Source: a virus (lineage: Duplodnaviria; Caudoviricetes). Taken from it: 64,000 nucleotides of DNA. The notes under the pieces were generated by a model, which was not told the DNA's origin, ran no database searches, and saw only the letters and a list, made by a program, of their open reading frames with translations. The stretch is from IMG/VR virus record IMGVR_UViG_3300031998_000005; one strand, given 5' to 3'. The position numbers were made by a program, and so were the translations under genes. This document shows positions 4,370 through 39,102 of this stretch, piece by piece; positions within the stretch are counted from its first letter, which is position 1; the number at the start of each line of letters is the position of its first letter.

Positions 4370-5314
4370 ATGTCGCTTTACAAAGAATACAGACCGAAAA
4401 CCCTTGATGAAATGATGGGCAACGAAAAGACCATTGAAGCCATCAAGACCCATTTCGCACAAGACCCGAAACGTGTTTCCCACTGCCATATCTTCTATGG
4501 CGGTAGCGGTTGCGGAAAGACTACCATCGCCCGTGCCATCGCTACTGAAATTCTCCACGCTGACCCGACTTTCAGCATTCGTGAGTATAACTCGTCTAAC
4601 AATCGTGGCATTGACACAGTCCGTGTGATTACCGATGAAATGAAGGGTATGCCCCTTAAAGGCAAGTCGCTCGTCTATATCATTGACGAAGCACACGGAA
4701 TGACCACGGACGCTAAACGTGCTTTCTTGAAGCCCACTGAAGATATGCCGAACCACGTGTATTTCTTCTTCTGCACCACGAACTTGACGCAGTTCTTGAA
4801 GGGCGATGAAGGCAAGGCTTTGGCTACCCGTAGCACCCAATGGAAGATGGAACCGCTCAATCCCCGTCAGTTGGGCAAGTTGGTTCTCCGTGTTGCTGAT
4901 GCAGAAAAGTTCAATGTTGATGACAAGGTGCTTACCGCCATTATGGATGTAGCCGATGGCTCTCCCCGTGCCGCCCTTGTCGCTCTTGAAAAGATTATGT
5001 CGCAACCGAACGACATTGACGCACAACTTAAAATCCTTGAAGGTGGTTTGGAAGAAGACCCCGATACCTTGGCGTTCTGCCGTGCCATTACTGCGGGTAA
5101 GCCGTCTTGGAAACAGATTTCGGACATCTTGAAAGATATGAAAGGCAGGGTGGATTCCGAAACGGTCCGCAGGGGCGTTCTTGGCTACTGCACGACTATT
5201 ATGCTCAAGAGCGGGTCTGACCGCATTTCCCGTGTAATGGAAGAATTTGCCGTGAATACCTATGATACGGGTTTCCCTGGGCTTGTTCTCGCAGCATATA
5301 GGTCGTTGAACTAA
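4370..5314 (+). CDS. DnaX (gamma/tau)-like clamp loader AAA+ ATPase
   Basis: [13 protein letters not shown], Walker [10 protein letters not shown], Walker B IIDEAH, FFFCTT. Confidence 0.9.
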
Positions 5315-5559
5315 TGAAGAAAAATCAAAATCCGAATAAGGTTGGCGGGGTCGCCATTGAAAACTGCTTGGTGCTTGAAGCATTGGGCGGGGATAAGTTC
5401 AAGGTCAAACTCCCCAACGACCACGAAATGATTTGCCACCTGTCGGGCAAGATACGGAAAAACCATATCCGTATTCTGCCCTACGATACTGTGACGATTG
5501 AGGTCAGTCCTTACGATGTAATGAACAACGGCAGGATTGTCTATCGTAACAAAAAGTAG
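5314..5559 (+). CDS. infA: Translation initiation factor IF-1
   Basis: [40 protein letters not shown]...GRIVYR signature. Confidence 0.93.
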
Positions 5560-5582: not shown

Positions 5583-5655
5583 GGACGAATAGCACAATGG
5601 TTAGTGCAACGGACTCATAACCCGTGGGTTCTTGGTTCAAGTCCAAGTTCGTCCA
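5583..5655 (+). tRNA. tRNA with CAT anticodon (Ile2 or elongator Met)
   Basis: Acceptor GGACGAA/TTCGTCC, loop CT-CAT-AA, T-arm CTTGG-TTCAAGT-CCAAG; no encoded CCA. Confidence 0.88.
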
Positions 5656-5686: not shown

Positions 5687-6178
5687 ATGGCTAACAATTA
5701 CTCTTTCTCCATCGGTCAAGTGGACCCCGACCTGGAAATTGACTTTATGGATTTACAGCCCCCTGTGGCTATGCAGGCTTCCCTGTATGGTTATTACAGT
5801 GACAAGGCGGTGGACGCACGTGCCGAGCGTGATTCTGCCGTGAACGAACTTGACAGGGTGACCTCTGCGGTTGAACTTGAAATCCGTGAAGACGCTGCCA
5901 AGAGCGGAGAAAAACTGACCGAAGCCAAGGTAAACGCCAAGGTGGAACAGGACAAGCGTGTAGTGGAACTCAAGGAAATCGTGGTTGAAAAGAACCGCAT
6001 TCTGCAACGCCACGAAGCCAAGTGCCGTGCCCTTGACCACAAGAAATCTATGATTGAATGTGCTGTCCGTATGATGCTCTCCAAGTCCAACGTAATGAGC
6101 GAAAAGGGCGTGGCTGACGAATGGGCAGGCGATGAATCGCAAAAGGCTATCCGCAGGGAACTGCGTGGTGGCAAATAA
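5687..6178 (+). CDS. UvsY-like recombination mediator (helical)
   Basis: Coiled-coil with GEKLTEAKVNAKV; position before SSB and RecA/UvsX. Confidence 0.55.
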   Translation: MANNYSFSIGQVDPDLEIDFMDLQPPVAMQASLYGYYSDKAVDARAERDSAVNELDRVTSAVELEIREDAAKSGEKLTEAKVNAKVEQDKRVVELKEIVVEKNRILQRHEAKCRALDHKKSMIECAVRMMLSKSNVMSEKGVADEWAGDESQKAIRRELRGGK

Positions 6179-6328
6179 AAAGTTTCAATATGGTAATAGC
6201 CAAAATGACGCTATCTTGCTATATTGAAGTATCGCCCCTTGCGGAGTTCTCCTATTCCGTAAAGGGCGTAGTGAATAGTGAACAAGAACAAACAACGCAA
6301 ACAGCAAACTACATAAAAGGAGTTGAAT

Positions 6329-7741
6329 ATGGCAGGATTTGACCGTAGCCGTATTAGCGGTGGCTTGGGTCGTCGCACCCAACAGCAGACCGATACCCGT
6401 GAATCCGCAGGCGGTGTGGGCCGTCAAGGATTTATGAACTATTCCACGCACAAACTGAAGTTCTTTAAGATGGGCGAGCCTGGGACTTACCACGACTTGA
6501 ACATTTTGCCGTGGCTTATCAGTTCCAAGAACCACCCCGAAGTGGTGGCAGGACACGCACAGGTTGGCGACCCCGACTACGTGCTTGACTTGATGGTTCA
6601 CACTCGTATCGGACCGAACCAGGGCGACTACATCTGCCCGAAGAAGAATTTTAACAAGCCGTGTCCGATTTGCGAACAGGCTGATGAACTTTGGAAGAAC
6701 GACAAGACCAAGGACGAAGCCCGTTCGCTGTTCGCTCGCCGTAAGTGCGTCTATCTCGTGCAGGAACTCACTGACGAGTTCCACGCCAAGAGTGAAGACC
6801 CGATGGTGTTTGAAGTGTCGCACTCCGTTTTCTCCAAGGAATTGCAGAGCCGTGCCACCTCTTGCCTGCGTGGTAAGGGTGTCGTGAATTTCGCTGACCC
6901 CGATGTTAAGGTTGGCAAGGTCGTGTCCTTCTCCGTGAACGAAGAAACGATGGGCAACGGCAAGAAGTTCAAGCAGGCGGGCAACTTTGAGTTCAACGAA
7001 CGTGTTGAAGAAATCAGCGATGAAATTCTTGAAAAGTGTCCGTCCTTGGATTCTATGATGGTCATTAAGACTTATGACCAACTCAAGTCTGCTCTTTATG
7101 GTGACCCCGATGACGTAGAAGAAGATTTTGAAAATCAGCAGGACGAAGACGAACAGCCGTCTGCTCGTTTCCGTGACAACGAACCCCAGGACTACGCAGC
7201 AGGACGCTCTCGCCATAACGATGTGGAAGAAGACGAAGCACCCGCACCGAGGCGTGGTCGTCGCCCTGTTGCCGAAGAAACCGAAGAACCCGCACCGAGG
7301 CGTAGCCGTCCGCAGGCAGAACCCGCAGATGAACAGGAAGAAACCCCTGCTCCCAGGCGTAGTCGCCCGCAGGCAGAAGAACCCGCTCCTGCTCGTTTTA
7401 AGGACAACGAACCCCCCGCAGACGAAGACTTTGTTGTGGACACGTCCGCTGACCCCTACACGGCTGCAAGACGCAGTTCCCGCAAGTCCAAAGTAGAACA
7501 GGATTCTACCAAGGAATCCGTCCGTCCGACTGAAAAAGCACCCGCTATGCCGTTTGACGATGAGGAAGAAGAACAGCCCGCAGAAAAGGCTGAAACTCCG
7601 AAGCGTGGAGCGTCCGAAGGCGAATGCCCGAACGGATATGAATTTGGTAAGGACTGCGAACGCCAACCGCTTTGTAGCCGTTGCCCCGATGCCATTTGGT
7701 CCAAGTGCGATGCCTGCCATCGCAGGATGGCTCGCAAGTAA
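6329..7741 (+). CDS. gp32-like single-stranded DNA-binding protein with long acidic repeat tail and C-terminal Cys cluster
   Basis: H..IGP....ICP......CPICE Zn site; acidic tail; position upstream of recombinase. Confidence 0.7.
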   Translation: MAGFDRSRISGGLGRRTQQQTDTRESAGGVGRQGFMNYSTHKLKFFKMGEPGTYHDLNILPWLISSKNHPEVVAGHAQVGDPDYVLDLMVHTRIGPNQGDYICPKKNFNKPCPICEQADELWKNDKTKDEARSLFARRKCVYLVQELTDEFHAKSEDPMVFEVSHSVFSKELQSRATSCLRGKGVVNFADPDVKVGKVVSFSVNEETMGNGKKFKQAGNFEFNERVEEISDEILEKCPSLDSMMVIKTYDQLKSALYGDPDDVEEDFENQQDEDEQPSARFRDNEPQDYAAGRSRHNDVEEDEAPAPRRGRRPVAEETEEPAPRRSRPQAEPADEQEETPAPRRSRPQAEEPAPARFKDNEPPADEDFVVDTSADPYTAARRSSRKSKVEQDSTKESVRPTEKAPAMPFDDEEEEQPAEKAETPKRGASEGECPNGYEFGKDCERQPLCSRCPDAIWSKCDACHRRMARK

Positions 7742-10889: not shown

Positions 10890-10918
10890 TTGACAGGCAC
10901 TTGATATTTTGTTATATT
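10890..10918 (+). promoter_or_regulatory. Early sigma70-type promoter (class I)
   Basis: TTGACA-17-TATATT with TG extension; conserved ACAACCAC leader. Confidence 0.85.
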
Positions 10919-31932: not shown

Positions 31933-32318
31933 TTACCCGTGTCACTGAATGGGTGCTGACGGGCTACGATTGTAGATGTGGAGAAATCTACACCCGTGTT
32001 CCATACAACGTAGCAACGGCTTCGCTTGTCTTGGATTCCGTATGGAGCAGATACGGGAGATTGCCTCCCCGTATGCTTGCAGAACCTTACAATCGTGGAT
32101 TGTTTGATGACTGCATAAACGCATTTATGGAATGGGTCGGGGAAACATCGGACGTTATGCGTAGCAAGTATCTGCGACAGATGGCTACGGATTGCACCCA
32201 TTATTTCCTGGGGTCGTTCGCCAATCGTAGCCCCGACCACGACCGCTTGTTGAACAGCACCAAAGAGCAAGTAAGAAAGGAACTCAACAAGATTATGGAG
32301 CGTGAAGCCTACGGATAA
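31929..32318 (+). CDS. Hypothetical protein
   Basis: GAGG RBS, ATGA overlap. Confidence 0.65.
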   Translation: MITRVTEWVLTGYDCRCGEIYTRVPYNVATASLVLDSVWSRYGRLPPRMLAEPYNRGLFDDCINAFMEWVGETSDVMRSKYLRQMATDCTHYFLGSFANRSPDHDRLLNSTKEQVRKELNKIMEREAYG

Positions 32319-32337
32319 AAAAAATTTAGCGAACCCC

Positions 32338-32366
32338 TTGACAATCGGATTTCAGTAATCTATATT
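32338..32366 (+). promoter_or_regulatory. Promoter of leader peptide / tRNA operon
   Basis: TTGACA-17-TATATT. Confidence 0.8.
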
Positions 32367-32389
32367 ATGGACCGTATAGGAAAATCACT

Positions 32390-32473
32390 ATGAGAAAGAA
32401 CTACGCAAATAATTTCTTCTTTGAAGCCGAGGCTAGTGCCGAAGCCTATTTTGCGTATGCCTTGCAGTGGTGA
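32390..32473 (+). CDS. Attenuator leader peptide MRKNYANNFFFEAEASAEAYFAYALQW
   Basis: AGGA RBS; codons 4-24 use only the six amino acids of the downstream tRNAs. Confidence 0.8.
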   Translation: MRKNYANNFFFEAEASAEAYFAYALQW

Positions 32474-32516
32474 TTTTCCAAGTGCTTTTAATGGGTTAAA
32501 CAGGAAACTCCACTGC
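32464..32516 (+). promoter_or_regulatory. Antiterminator stem
   Basis: GCAGTGGTGATTTTCC (32464-79) pairs with GGAAACTCCACTGC (32503-16), the terminator 5' arm. Confidence 0.7.
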
Positions 32517-32539
32517 GTATGCGGTGGAGTTTTTCTTTT
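32505..32539 (+). terminator. Attenuator terminator before tRNA operon
   Basis: AAACTCCACTGC-GTAT-GCGGTGGAGTTT then TTCTTTT. Confidence 0.85.
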
Positions 32540-32547
32540 ATCCTTAT

Positions 32548-32622
32548 GTGGCGGTAGCGTCAGCCTGGTAGAGCAGGGGACTGAAAATCCTCGTGTCGGT
32601 GGTTCAAATCCACCCCGTCGCA
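32548..32622 (+). tRNA. tRNA-Phe(GAA)
   Basis: GGGGA-CT-GAA-AA-TCCTC; GGTGG-TTCAAAT-CCACC. Confidence 0.88.
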
Positions 32623-32633
32623 CGAACAAATTT

Positions 32634-32706
32634 GGTTTCATCGTCTAGTGGTCAAGGACATTAGGTTTTCAACCTAAAGACTAGGGTTCAAGCCCCTATG
32701 AAACTA
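32634..32706 (+). tRNA. tRNA-Glu(TTC)
   Basis: GGTTTCA/TGAAACT; TTAGG-TT-TTC-AA-CCTAA. Confidence 0.88.
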
Positions 32707-32710
32707 CTAT

Positions 32711-32783
32711 GGGACGTTAGTTCAGTTGGTAGAACGCCTGCCTTGCAAGCAGGAGGTCATCGGTTCAAGTCCGATACGCTCCA
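32711..32783 (+). tRNA. tRNA-Ala(TGC)
   Basis: CCTGC-CT-TGC-AA-GCAGG; G3:U70 identity pair. Confidence 0.92.
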
Positions 32784-32792
32784 CTACATTTT

Positions 32793-32865
32793 TCTGCCCT
32801 AGTTTAATGGTAAAACACCCGCCTGTTAAGCGGAGAGAGTCCACGTCCGAATCGTGGGAGTAGAG
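32793..32865 (+). tRNA. tRNA-Asn(GTT)
   Basis: CCGC-CT-GTT-AA-GCGG; CCACG-TCCGAAT-CGTGG; G discriminator. Confidence 0.8.
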
Positions 32866-32872
32866 CGAATTT

Positions 32873-32955
32873 GGATAGGTATGCAAGTGGCTAAAGCAGG
32901 CGGTCTGTAAAACCGCCCCCTTCGGGGTTCGTAGGTCCGAAACCTACCCTATCCA
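32873..32955 (+). tRNA. tRNA-Tyr(GTA)
   Basis: GGATAGG/CCTATCC; GCGGT-CT-GTA-AA-ACCGC; variable arm CCCCTTCGGGG. Confidence 0.9.
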
Positions 32956-32960
32956 CGAAT

Positions 32961-33043
32961 GGAGAATTACGCTAATTGGTAAGCGACCTCGGTGCTAACG
33001 AGGCGGGTGCAAGCCCTTACAGGTTCAAGTCCTGTATTCTCCG
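32961..33043 (+). tRNA. tRNA-Ser(GCT)
   Basis: GGAGAAT/ATTCTCC; CCTCG-GT-GCT-AA-CGAGG; long variable arm; G discriminator. Confidence 0.88.
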
Positions 33044-33146
33044 TTAGGTTTTTGACAGTATTTTGTGAATATCCTGTTTGCTTTTTGTAGTAAATAGTTA
33101 TATATTAAGTATAAATTCTACAAAATCCCCCGACAAGGAAATCACA

Positions 33147-33464
33147 ATGGCTGAAAATTTCTACAAACTCTTACATCAGCGGATAGCCGAACACGCTGAA
33201 AAAGACCTGGCTAGGTATGGAATATGCCTAAACCGCACACCCGCCAAGCCCATCACACGGCAACGCAAATGGCTTGACAAGTTCAAGGCTCTCCACGGGA
33301 TGTCTTACAGCACGTGGCTTTACAGGCAGAAACATAGCCACCCCGCAGAAACAACAGAAAAGCCCGTAGAACCGCAGGCAGAAAGCCCAATAGAGCAGAC
33401 AACCACACCGATAGAAACCCCGCTGATGTTGCCACAGGAAACGCCTATTCCTGCCCTCGCCTAG
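33147..33464 (+). CDS. Hypothetical protein
   Basis: AAGGA RBS; motif shared with sigma-like C-terminus. Confidence 0.6.
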   Translation: MAENFYKLLHQRIAEHAEKDLARYGICLNRTPAKPITRQRKWLDKFKALHGMSYSTWLYRQKHSHPAETTEKPVEPQAESPIEQTTTPIETPLMLPQETPIPALA

Positions 33465-35669: not shown

Positions 35670-36011
35670 ATGAACGCACAAGTGGAACTATTTACCATTG
35701 AAATTCAGTCCCTTTCGGATTACGAATACCTCGCCCAAAAGGTCAAGGACTACCACGATGATGTGGTGTCTGCCCTGTTGAGCCTTTCCCATCGTAATCC
35801 CAAGAAATATAACCTGTCGGCTTTCCGTATCTGCCACGATGCCGATTTCGTATGGACAGCGGGAACTGATACGATTACCGCTACCACGCAGGACATTCTT
35901 GCTCTCTATCTTGGTGGAAATCAAGCGTGGGCACAGATGAAACAAGCCGAGCATAAGGCTGAAATAAACGCTTTCAAACGTAAAATCAAAAAGGAAGGTT
36001 TGTGGATATGA
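35670..36011 (+). CDS. Hypothetical protein
   Basis: GAGG RBS. Confidence 0.65.
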   Translation: MNAQVELFTIEIQSLSDYEYLAQKVKDYHDDVVSALLSLSHRNPKKYNLSAFRICHDADFVWTAGTDTITATTQDILALYLGGNQAWAQMKQAEHKAEINAFKRKIKKEGLWI

Positions 36012-36481
36012 CAAACATCGTAATTGTAGATATTGACGGCACGATTACCGATGCTTCGGAACGTGCTAAAAAGTATCTTTCCAAAGAACCGAAAGATTGG
36101 GATAAGTTCTACGATGCCTGTGGTAGCGACAAGCCTATCCAGGAAATCGTGGACCTTGTTTGTGCCTTGTCGGATTCCTACGGGATTGTGTTCTGCACAG
36201 GCAGACGCAGAAGCACGAACGATGCCACCCGTCAGTGGCTTCGTGATAACTTAAAGACGTTCCGATACAGCCGTAACGGTGTGATGGGCTTGCCTATCCT
36301 GTATCGCAACGATGGCGACACCCGACACGACACCCTCGTGAAACCCGAACTGCTTGACGAATATCTGCGACAGCACCCCGATTACAGGGTTTCGTTCATT
36401 CTTGAAGACCGAAACTCTATGGTCAAGAAATGGCGGGAACTTGGTTTCAAGTGCCTGCAAGTAGCCGATGGAGATTTCTAG
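36002..36481 (+). CDS. HAD-family phosphatase, like T4 PseT 3'-phosphatase domain
   Basis: VDIDGT, CTGR, D...K, EDR..VK.WRELG..CLQVADGDF. Confidence 0.85.
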   Translation: MDMTNIVIVDIDGTITDASERAKKYLSKEPKDWDKFYDACGSDKPIQEIVDLVCALSDSYGIVFCTGRRRSTNDATRQWLRDNLKTFRYSRNGVMGLPILYRNDGDTRHDTLVKPELLDEYLRQHPDYRVSFILEDRNSMVKKWRELGFKCLQVADGDF

Positions 36482-36482
36482 T

Positions 36483-36911
36483 ATGACGAAAGACATCCAT
36501 ACAATCGCTAGTTTTGGCGAACTTGAAGTCTATGAACCCGATGACGCTGCGAAAGAACCCTTCGCCAAGTTTTTCCGTATGTCCGATGTTCTTTCCTTTG
36601 CAGAACAGACAGCGAAAAAAGAAGAAGAACTTATAGGAACGCTGTTCCGTCAGTTCGCAGAACTTTCCCGCTACGAGTTCTTTAAGAAGAAACTTTGGAA
36701 GAAAGTAAAGGGTTTCAAGGACACGGACGAAGCCGAGGTCATCATCGCCTTTGCGACTATCCGTCTGCGAAACCTGGGTATCTACACCCGCCCGTGTGGG
36801 TGTGCTTGGTGTTCGTTCGCTAATTGGTCGCACGAAGATGTGAACGAATACTTGAAAGAATATGTGCCTGTGTTTGAAGCCTACAGCAAGTGGTGTATGG
36901 CACAGCGATAA
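36483..36911 (+). CDS. Hypothetical protein
   Basis: GGAG RBS. Confidence 0.65.
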   Translation: MTKDIHTIASFGELEVYEPDDAAKEPFAKFFRMSDVLSFAEQTAKKEEELIGTLFRQFAELSRYEFFKKKLWKKVKGFKDTDEAEVIIAFATIRLRNLGIYTRPCGCAWCSFANWSHEDVNEYLKEYVPVFEAYSKWCMAQR

Positions 36912-37225: not shown

Positions 37226-38539
37226 ATGAAATATCTCATTATCCAAACCGATTGGGATGATTACTACGTGGAATGCCCGACCGAGAAATTCTACGAGCGT
37301 CTGTGTTCCTGTGTTCCGCACACATCGGAATTTCGTGGATGGCACGGCAGTGATGAAAAGGAAGGTCGTGAACTTGGACACAAGGGGTCTGTTGAAATCT
37401 TCGGCAGGGATATTATCGCTATTGCCGAGGGCACCGAGAAAGCCCCGTGGAATCCCGAACGACTTAAAGAACAACTGAAACAGACGATTGGCGAAGAATA
37501 TATTTACAGCGGTTCGGCAAACGTGGTCGTCACTACGAACAAGTCCTTGCAGCCGTTTGAACTGACCCCCGAAAATTCTATCATCCTGGGGATGACCAAC
37601 CTTATGTTCTTTGCGAACGGCTACAAGCATCCTATCCCGTGGCTCCGTGCGACGGATAACGATGTATTCAAGGTAATACGCTCCGCAAAGGAATGGTTAG
37701 AGACACATCGCCCGTGGAATATAGAGGGCTACTACAAGCATCTGCTTGTCATCTTCCAAGAAGACCCACGCATTATCCGAGATACTACGGAAACTACCGA
37801 CCCCCTCTACTTGAAAGAAATCCACGACAGGATTGTTTTGGACGTTCCCGACCATCCGATTGTGGCTGACACTAATCGTGTCCAAACAGGTATCAATACT
37901 TTCGTGTCTTGGGGTGGAGCGACTAACGAACTGATTGACAAGGCAACCAACTACGTTCAATCCTTGCTCGTTCCATCGGCTGAAACCCTTAACCTTGAGA
38001 AAACTATGCCCGAACAGAAAGACGATATTCCTACTTATCCGCTTGTCCTGCCCCGTAGCGATGTTCCGACTTATAAGGAACTTGCGACGTGGTTGGCAGA
38101 AGGCAGGGGCGAACTGCTTGACCTTAACAATTTTAATACTGTGAAACACACCCTTGATTATCCTTTGGACAAGGAAAACGAATGCCTGCACCCGTTGGAT
38201 GTATGCTACTACCGAGTGCGTGTCAAAGATGACATTACTTGGCGAAAGCCCGACATCAAATCTATGGGCATTCAGCGATGGGACATCGCCAAGTTTAGCG
38301 TGTATATCGCAACCAAGTATGAAAATGTCGTAAAGGTATCTATGGGTCTATTGGGACCTGACCTGTGCTTGGGTAATCTGCGACTTGCCAACTTTGCCAC
38401 AGGAGCAGTCACCGAAATCGGAGAATCCTTGGGAGAACTCAAGGCATCTACCACGGTGCCGTGGGATAAATTAACCGATAAGGATGTGATGCTCCTTGAA
38501 AAAGACATCCAAAGACTCATTAACGAACACAAGGTATAA
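37226..38539 (+). CDS. Hypothetical protein
   Basis: 437 aa ORF, AAGGA RBS. Confidence 0.8.
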   Translation: MKYLIIQTDWDDYYVECPTEKFYERLCSCVPHTSEFRGWHGSDEKEGRELGHKGSVEIFGRDIIAIAEGTEKAPWNPERLKEQLKQTIGEEYIYSGSANVVVTTNKSLQPFELTPENSIILGMTNLMFFANGYKHPIPWLRATDNDVFKVIRSAKEWLETHRPWNIEGYYKHLLVIFQEDPRIIRDTTETTDPLYLKEIHDRIVLDVPDHPIVADTNRVQTGINTFVSWGGATNELIDKATNYVQSLLVPSAETLNLEKTMPEQKDDIPTYPLVLPRSDVPTYKELATWLAEGRGELLDLNNFNTVKHTLDYPLDKENECLHPLDVCYYRVRVKDDITWRKPDIKSMGIQRWDIAKFSVYIATKYENVVKVSMGLLGPDLCLGNLRLANFATGAVTEIGESLGELKASTTVPWDKLTDKDVMLLEKDIQRLINEHKV

Positions 38540-38541
38540 CT

Positions 38542-39102
38542 ATGAAAACATTAGCACTTTACGCAGGGAGTTTCAACCCTATCCACGCAGGGCATATCCA
38601 GGTCATTGAAACCGCACAGCAGATTTTCGGAGAAGACCACGTAGGCATCCTGCTTGCAGACAATCCGCAGAAGACCTATGGGGTGTCCAAGGATAAACGC
38701 TCCGATTGGTTGTGGCAAACCGTCGGCAAGCGTCCGTATTATGTGGATGGGTTCGTGTGTGATTTCTGCGATGAAAAAAGTAGGGAAATCTCATACGGGG
38801 AACAGGTGTGGGATAACATTGTGCTTATCCGTGGTGTCCGTTCGGGAGCAGACCTTGATACCGAAATCCCGATGGCGGGCTACAACTACAACATTTCGCA
38901 CGGCAAATACCCGACTATCCTAATCCCGACCCCTGCGAACCTTCGTGACCTGTCATCTTCGGCAGTCCGTGTTCTCGCCAAGCGGGATTTCAACGAGTTC
39001 TTTGACATCCTGTATAAGCCCTACGCTCCGCAGAAAATATCCTACTCCAAATGGGTAGATGTTGCCGAAGACGTTTGGAAAACCTACCACGAGTCAAAAT
39101 GA
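38542..39102 (+). CDS. CoaD/PPAT-like HxGH nucleotidyltransferase
   Basis: LYAGSFNPIHAGH, IRGVR...D...E, LSSSAVR. Confidence 0.8.
   Translation: MKTLALYAGSFNPIHAGHIQVIETAQQIFGEDHVGILLADNPQKTYGVSKDKRSDWLWQTVGKRPYYVDGFVCDFCDEKSREISYGEQVWDNIVLIRGVRSGADLDTEIPMAGYNYNISHGKYPTILIPTPANLRDLSSSAVRVLAKRDFNEFFDILYKPYAPQKISYSKWVDVAEDVWKTYHESK

Follow-up and report, generated by a model that had tools for sequence, protein, structure and literature searches.

A putative leader-peptide attenuator ahead of a six-gene tRNA operon in an uncultured giant phage

How does a phage decide when to make its own tRNAs? The question is raised by a locus in the virus record IMGVR_UViG_3300031998_000005 of IMG/VR, of which we analysed a stretch of 64,000 nucleotides (nt), hereafter the window. 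Phage tRNAs are currently explained by codon-usage compensation or by escape from tRNA-targeting host defences. At this locus, six tRNA genes lie directly behind a hairpin that is the strongest terminator-like site of the whole window, and ahead of that hairpin is a short open reading frame (ORF) whose core is written in codons for the same six amino acids. Based on locus anatomy, folds of the nascent RNA, covariation among relatives, and codon evolution, all of them computational, we consider it probable that a ribosome-mediated (leader-peptide) transcription attenuator gates the six-gene operon. Within this reading, the translation of the leader, the switching driven by ribosome stalls, and the physiological trigger are the parts that we infer. 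The locus is built from the following features, the tRNA genes having been called by both ARAGORN and Rfam.

32338..32366, + strand: sigma-70-type promoter (TTGACA-17-TATATT), with a transcription start predicted near 32371-32374
32378..32381, + strand: Shine-Dalgarno sequence (SD) AGGA, 8 nt 5' of the ATG and kept in all lineages of relatives
32379..32391, + strand: region 1 (SD and AUG), putative anti-antiterminator with region 2
32390..32473, + strand: leader ORF of 27 codons plus TGA (TGA at 32471-73)
32464..32479, + strand: region 2 (last codons, stop codon and 6 nt beyond), partner of region 1 or region 3
32503..32516, + strand: region 3, the terminator 5' arm, partner of region 2 (antiterminator) or region 4
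32521..32541, + strand: region 4, the terminator 3' arm and U-rich tract
32548..32623, + strand: tRNA-Phe (GAA)
32634..32707, + strand: tRNA-Glu (UUC)
32711..32784, + strand: tRNA-Ala (UGC)
32793..32866, + strand: tRNA-Asn (GUU)
32873..32956, + strand: tRNA-Tyr (GUA)
32960..33044, + strand: tRNA-Ser (GCU)

The leader ORF starts approximately 17-19 nt after the predicted transcription start and encodes the peptide MRKNYANNFFFEAEASAEAYFAYALQW. The terminator consists of a 14-pair stem (32503-32534) followed by CTTTTAT, with 13 nt separating the stem from tRNA-Phe. The order of parts here is promoter, 165 nt, terminator, and tRNAs, whereas elsewhere in the window it is usually reversed, with a terminator preceding a promoter (e.g. 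10835 then 10890, and 17524 then 17594). Because a search for a promoter-like site between the terminator and tRNA-Phe found none, the six tRNAs would be made only through read-through of the terminator. The promoter itself is one of approximately 13 near-identical copies on the + strand of the window. Members of this TTGACA-17-(TG)TATATT family lie at 10890, 17594, 22498, 25477, 27323, 32338, 33514, 34442, 46633, 52818, and 54040, and their position at the head of many gene blocks suggests that most of the region is transcribed by a host polymerase of the sigma-70 type.

The match between the leader and the genes behind it is the first line of evidence. Codons 4-24 of the leader specify only Asn, Tyr, Ala, Phe, Glu, and Ser, such that 21/21 core codons fit the downstream tRNA set, and the sole Ser codon is AGT, which is readable by the GCU anticodon. 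This 21-residue run is the longest drawn from the six-member set in a six-frame translation of the 64 kb, followed by runs of 11 and 9 residues, and the counts of such runs drop approximately 3.5-fold with each added residue. For a six-of-six correspondence between amino-acid set and tRNA set, the prior is 1 in 38,760 (20 choose 6). An earlier sequence-only reading of this DNA, made without database searches, had placed the promoter, the AGGA, the 27-codon ORF, the terminator, and the six tRNAs exactly where we find them, and its description of 21 core codons for these six amino acids with an AGT Ser codon is borne out by the translation and the tRNA calls.

The second line of evidence is the pairing potential of the leader RNA. 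The sequence-only reading had noted that the end of the leader ORF is complementary to the terminator 5' arm, and we confirm this candidate antiterminator (helix 2:3; 32464-79 with 32503-16) at a duplex energy of -18.4 kcal/mol, a value matched by 16/2000 dinucleotide shuffles and equalled by 1.6% of unshuffled 128-nt segments taken from the window. Region 3 is also complementary to region 4 (helix 3:4; 32521-34), with an energy of -23.2 kcal/mol. In addition to these two, we identified a third helix, in which the SD and AUG (32379-91) are complementary to 32467-79, including the stop codon (helix 1:2; -18.1 kcal/mol, matched by 0/2000 shuffled leaders). Given helix 1:2, the default, untranslated state would be termination. 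Moreover, the UGA lies inside region 2, so that a ribosome at the stop codon could mask the antiterminator, whose formation excludes the terminator. The anatomy of a trp/his/thr-type attenuator, which the sequence-only reading had recognized here, is thus complete, though the scheme as first drawn lacked the 1:2 helix.

We simulated ribosome positions by masking parts of a nascent transcript folded up to region 3. Ribosome-free, this RNA forms 1:2 and leaves region 3 free; with the SD and AUG occupied and region 2 exposed, 2:3 forms; and a ribosome placed at the stop codon masks region 2 and once more leaves region 3 free. These folds are consistent with the following sequence of events. Host RNA polymerase would start at the 32338-32366 promoter and transcribe the 27-codon leader. 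Were no ribosome loaded, regions 1 and 2 would pair, region 3 would remain free, and 3:4 would form, with termination before tRNA-Phe. A ribosome reading smoothly to the UGA would cover region 2, and 3:4 would again form and terminate transcription. In the core, the ribosome would stall when any of the charged Asn, Tyr, Ala, Phe, Glu, or Ser(AGY) tRNAs is in short supply; region 2 would then lie open, region 1 being occupied by that ribosome or by one behind it, and 2:3 would block the terminator, allowing polymerase to proceed into the six tRNA genes. The tRNA products would in turn speed leader translation and close the loop, constituting a negative feedback on tRNA supply.

If such a switch matters to the phage, its helices should be visible in the evolution of related leaders. 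The source phage is an uncultured giant phage of rumen type: its DNA polymerase is approximately 24% identical to those of cultured phages, and contigs with identical neighbouring proteins, one of them 190 kb long, come from bovine and similar metagenomes. The exact leader DNA was not found in IMG/VR, the GenBank phage collection yielded no relative (the matches being single tRNAs only), and the neighbouring proteins have almost no homologues, with Pfam and PHROGs giving no matches for the flanking genes. Relatives were gathered from metagenomes through neighbouring proteins and degenerate patterns, and their leaders fall into four lineages.

Lineage W: the window, L001-L005, L012-15, L032, and L036
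Lineage B: L011, L018, and L037
Lineage C: L017, a complete 215-kb IMG/VR genome
Lineage D: L041, a 213-kb IMG/VR genome

The leader of a further contig, L007, is identical to that of the window, as is that of L005. Across the relatives, the promoter hexamers, the SD, and the ATG are invariant while the promoter spacer is variable. Since automated alignment misaligns regions 2 and 3 of L041, we avoided counts of alignment columns and scored helix conservation by duplex energies within each lineage and by a swap of pairing partners between lineages. All three helices are kept in every lineage, with energies of -13.4 to -18.1 kcal/mol for 1:2, -18.0 to -21.6 kcal/mol for 2:3, and -20.6 to -25.5 kcal/mol for 3:4. 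In L017, an A-U pair of 2:3 has become G-C, and the region-3 substitution involved also converts a G-U pair of 3:4 to G-C; a C-G pair of 1:2 has become A-U, beside a 4-nt insertion in region 1. In L041, region 2 has gained 3 nt (one codon, with the frame kept), region 3 has gained 2 nt, and region 4 is altered to match, with the upper part of 2:3 amounting to 9 pairs after the insertions. Native partners pair better than chimeric ones throughout the swap (-16.8 vs -13.4 kcal/mol for 1:2, -18.0 vs -14.0 for 2:3, and -22.0 vs -17.1 for 3:4). Three mutually exclusive helices that change in coordination are the signature of a terminator/antiterminator/anti-antiterminator switch.

The reading frame carries a coding signal as well. 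In codons 5-23 of lineages W, B, and C, 3/57 columns are variable, all of them synonymous third positions (TTC/TTT, GAG/GAA, and GCT/GCA), compared to 37/125 columns in the rest of the element (Fisher P = 1.7e-4). The end codons vary in the amino acid that they encode (R2 to K, I, or N; N4 to I; and the terminal ALQW to SVRC or SQSW), and the amino-acid changes at the 3' end of the leader follow the helices. In L041, the core has changed F10 to Y and acquired one inserted Phe codon, and codon 2 has changed from R to N, all within the six-member set. This core pattern is the one expected of a translated frame in which the identity of the reading tRNAs matters.

A core peptide that is kept while its ends vary could also be read as a small protein gene, and a promoter, an ORF, and a terminator do make up a complete one; in that case a functional 27-amino-acid peptide would be expressed from its own unit, the tRNAs would arise from transcription leaking past the terminator, and the leader would agree with the tRNA set by coincidence. 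We judge this account to be highly unlikely. The C-terminal residues change with RNA pairing and not with peptide chemistry, the 2:3 complementarity and its compensatory changes would be left without a role, the tRNAs would have no effective promoter, and the set match would be very improbable.

Conversely, the fold of the leader might matter without its translation. At -62.1 kcal/mol (z = -5.5), the minimum-energy fold is very stable, and its long 1:2 stem encloses the whole ORF, as could be the case for a structured 5' leader involved in RNA processing or stability (e.g. an RNase III or RNase E site before a tRNA precursor) or for a short small RNA, the ORF being fortuitous. However, the GCT to GCA change, found in two lineages, disrupts a small inner hairpin (GGCU/AGCC), and thus RNA structure does not account for the conservation of the core. 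Core variation is moreover synonymous-only or within the six-member set, indels preserve the frame, and a terminator of this strength, placed immediately ahead of genes whose expression is required, would need an override. We give this explanation very little credence.

Returning to the attenuator, the sequence-only reading had proposed to check relatives for leaders whose amino-acid set co-varies with their tRNA set, and such co-variation is not seen among these relatives. All six tRNAs are present in lineages W and D. In L005/L007, L037, and L017, a 265-amino-acid ORF with weak HNH matches exactly replaces tRNA-Ala and tRNA-Asn, between tRNA-Glu and tRNA-Tyr.

L005, 10753-11550, - strand: 265-amino-acid HNH-like ORF
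L037, 869-1666, - strand: 265-amino-acid HNH-like ORF
L017, about 6000-6800, - strand: 265-amino-acid HNH-like ORF

The cassette DNA is 89-95% identical from one lineage to another, the Phe-Glu tRNAs of L005 do not differ from those of L017, and the cassette is probably a mobile homing element that has recently spread. Such a recent spread would make the six-tRNA state ancestral, leaving the leader without the time, or the need, to adapt. Neither tRNA-Ala nor tRNA-Asn is encoded at any other place in L017, whose 215-kb genome is complete. The leaders of the affected relatives have not followed, and their Ala and Asn codons outlast the two tRNAs. This retention does not refute the attenuator model.

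Other variation touches the tRNA genes as well. L011 carries a different ORF at the junction between tRNA-Glu and tRNA-Tyr. In L041, two tRNA-like segments lie between tRNA-Ala and tRNA-Asn (1314-1526, - strand), with ends resembling acceptor and T arms and one of them approximately 118 nt long; neither ARAGORN nor Rfam calls them, their amino-acid type is not assignable, and they may be decayed or non-canonical tRNAs. The tRNA-Phe of L001 (1120-1193) clearly differs from that of the window (32548-32623) despite a near-identical leader, and the same holds for tRNA-Glu and tRNA-Asn, a pattern that points to tRNA genes being exchanged, or diverging faster than the leader ahead of them.

Several observations weigh against the attenuator, and the retained codons are among them: the L017 leader still has 6 Ala and 3 Asn codons, and that of L005/L007 still has 7 Ala and 3 Asn codons, despite the lost tRNAs. 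GCC, the Ala codon least well read by the anticodon UGC, makes up 4/7 of the leader Ala codons in the window. The SD-AUG spacing in L017 is 12 nt. The lineage sample is small (four only), and recombination near the HNH cassette may make the element look more conserved than it is. For stalls from approximately codon 8 onwards, region 1 lies outside the ribosome, so the model assumes a second ribosome on the SD. In the full transcript at equilibrium, the terminator is formed whatever part is masked and is never opened; the masking behaviour proposed in the sequence-only reading is therefore reproduced in nascent folds and fails in equilibrium folds, and any switch must be kinetic, as in trp. Lastly, were the host a Firmicute in which translation is not coupled to transcription, the timing would be more difficult. 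The use of an SD and of TTGACA/TATATT promoters argues against a host among the Bacteroidota, and a homologue of translation initiation factor IF-1 encoded by the phage, considered as a host indicator, has matches in an uninformative spread of taxa.

Some of these points would fit a switch that is real and senses general translation or timing instead of the six tRNAs, through ribosome loading or through the action of a phage factor at the SD or RNA polymerase, with codon composition being secondary. The helices and their covariation by themselves require no specific codons, ribosome loading would be sensed first with region 1 being the SD and AUG, and the Ala and Asn codons are retained where their tRNAs are gone. 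Nevertheless, such a switch leaves unexplained the six-of-six match, the AGT Ser codon, a core whose changes are synonymous or confined to the set, and the inserted codon that itself belongs to the set, and we regard it as unlikely.

As to what a codon-sensing attenuator would be for, tRNA depletion by anticodon nucleases or starvation as its trigger is speculation. A possible role, which we put forward tentatively and with more doubt than confidence, is that of an inducible counter-defence combined with a homeostat. The tRNA operon would be near-silent until host Asn, Tyr, Phe, Glu, Ala, or Ser(AGY) tRNAs are cleaved or depleted, for example by anticodon nucleases or in the course of host shut-off; the replacements would then restore decoding and, having done so, shut the operon off.

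Multivalent leader-peptide attenuators are known from enterobacteria, in which the ilvGMEDA leader responds to Leu, Val, and Ile and the thr leader to Thr and Ile. The phage element resembles the ilvGMEDA, thr, trp, his, and pheA leaders in its promoter-proximal ORF with an SD and an abundance of regulatory codons, in its overlapping 1:2, 2:3, and 3:4 helices of similar strength, and in a stop codon lying in or beside region 2. The distance of approximately 65 nt from stop codon to terminator end is likewise shared with enterobacterial leaders, and the sensing of several amino acids by a single leader is shared with ilvGMEDA and thr. Unlike the enterobacterial leaders of amino-acid operons, the putative phage attenuator would control tRNAs rather than biosynthetic enzymes, such that the molecules sensed are the direct products of the operon; it would sense six amino acids, is encoded by a phage, and has no sequence or Rfam relationship to those leaders. 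In contrast to trp, region 1 is formed by the SD and AUG and not by the regulatory codons. The genes usually found behind such leaders, for amino-acid biosynthesis, transport, or aminoacyl-tRNA synthetases, are here replaced by six tRNA genes.

Attenuation of the translation apparatus itself is known from pheST of Escherichia coli, where a leader with a run of Phe codons controls phenylalanyl-tRNA synthetase. The phage locus is similar in that attenuation would act on part of the translation apparatus and not on a biosynthetic pathway; it differs in that the pheST operon encodes a synthetase, responds to one amino acid, and is located on a bacterial chromosome, whereas the genes behind the phage leader are those of the tRNAs themselves. 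T-box riboswitches work without translation, through direct binding of uncharged tRNA. They share with our candidate a decision between terminator and antiterminator that is set by the charging state of a specific tRNA, while the phage leader instead has a translatable, codon-matched ORF and neither a specifier nor a T-box motif. Consistent with this, an Rfam scan of 32200-33200 (E <= 1) returned tRNA as the only significant family, with no leader family and no T-box; the lone other match, located inside tRNA-Phe on the minus strand, scores well under its gathering threshold. A full-text literature search found no published leader-peptide attenuator before tRNA genes, whether in phages or in bacteria. 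The novelty relative to known attenuators would be the control of tRNA genes, the mechanism itself being known.

Units of similar architecture occur in LR745206.1, a GenBank record of an unrelated 635-kb uncultured phage, in which two mini-ORFs, each with a terminator of 12-13 pairs, are located directly before blocks of tRNA genes.

LR745206.1, 19318-19466: unit 1, whose ORF contains SYESYYEE and precedes Glu/Tyr tRNAs
LR745206.1, 20370-20512: unit 2, whose ORF contains ISIAVIGNGAGAI and precedes Ile-Gly-Met-Gly tRNAs

The 3' parts of the two ORFs are complementary to the terminator 5' arms at -12.2 and -13.1 kcal/mol, energies reached by 20/1000 and 15/1000 shuffles, respectively, and this complementarity is a possible antiterminator. 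The sequences are unrelated to the window and the amino-acid sets are others; both ORFs show some enrichment for residues that fit the tRNAs behind them, and the match is far weaker than in the window (7/27 and 10/26 residues). We also considered Xanthomonas phage XacN1 as a cultured instance, with a K/Y-rich ORF of 13 codons before Lys-Lys-Tyr tRNAs, and rejected it after no terminator was seen on inspection.

If the attenuator at the window locus is as we propose, tRNA supply would be gauged by the ribosome itself, in a direct feedback loop, and no attenuator of the leader-peptide type would have been reported for tRNA genes before it. The underlying sequence rule, that the composition of a mini-ORF equals the downstream tRNA set, is searchable across all phage genomes, and it can be used to predict the host tRNAs whose loss a phage anticipates. 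Should the counter-defence role hold as well, the similar units in unrelated giant phages would point to translation-sensing control of viral tRNAs as a general class that has yet to be published.

The window also encodes other genes with links to translation and RNA. The IF-1 homologue (5314-5559, + strand) is 81 amino acids long and 45-59% identical to bacterial IF-1, and its gene ends 24 nt before a tRNA-Met (5583-5655). A stand-alone PNKP phosphatase domain (36002-36481, + strand; Pfam HAD_PNKP, E = 1.8e-30) is encoded 3 kb downstream of the tRNA operon and may contribute to the healing of RNA or tRNA ends; neither Pfam nor PDB gives a match for the genes beside it (36468-36911 and 37226-38539). 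These are followed by a gene for a cytidylyltransferase-like protein (38542-39102, + strand; Pfam CTP_transf_like, E = 1.1e-9).

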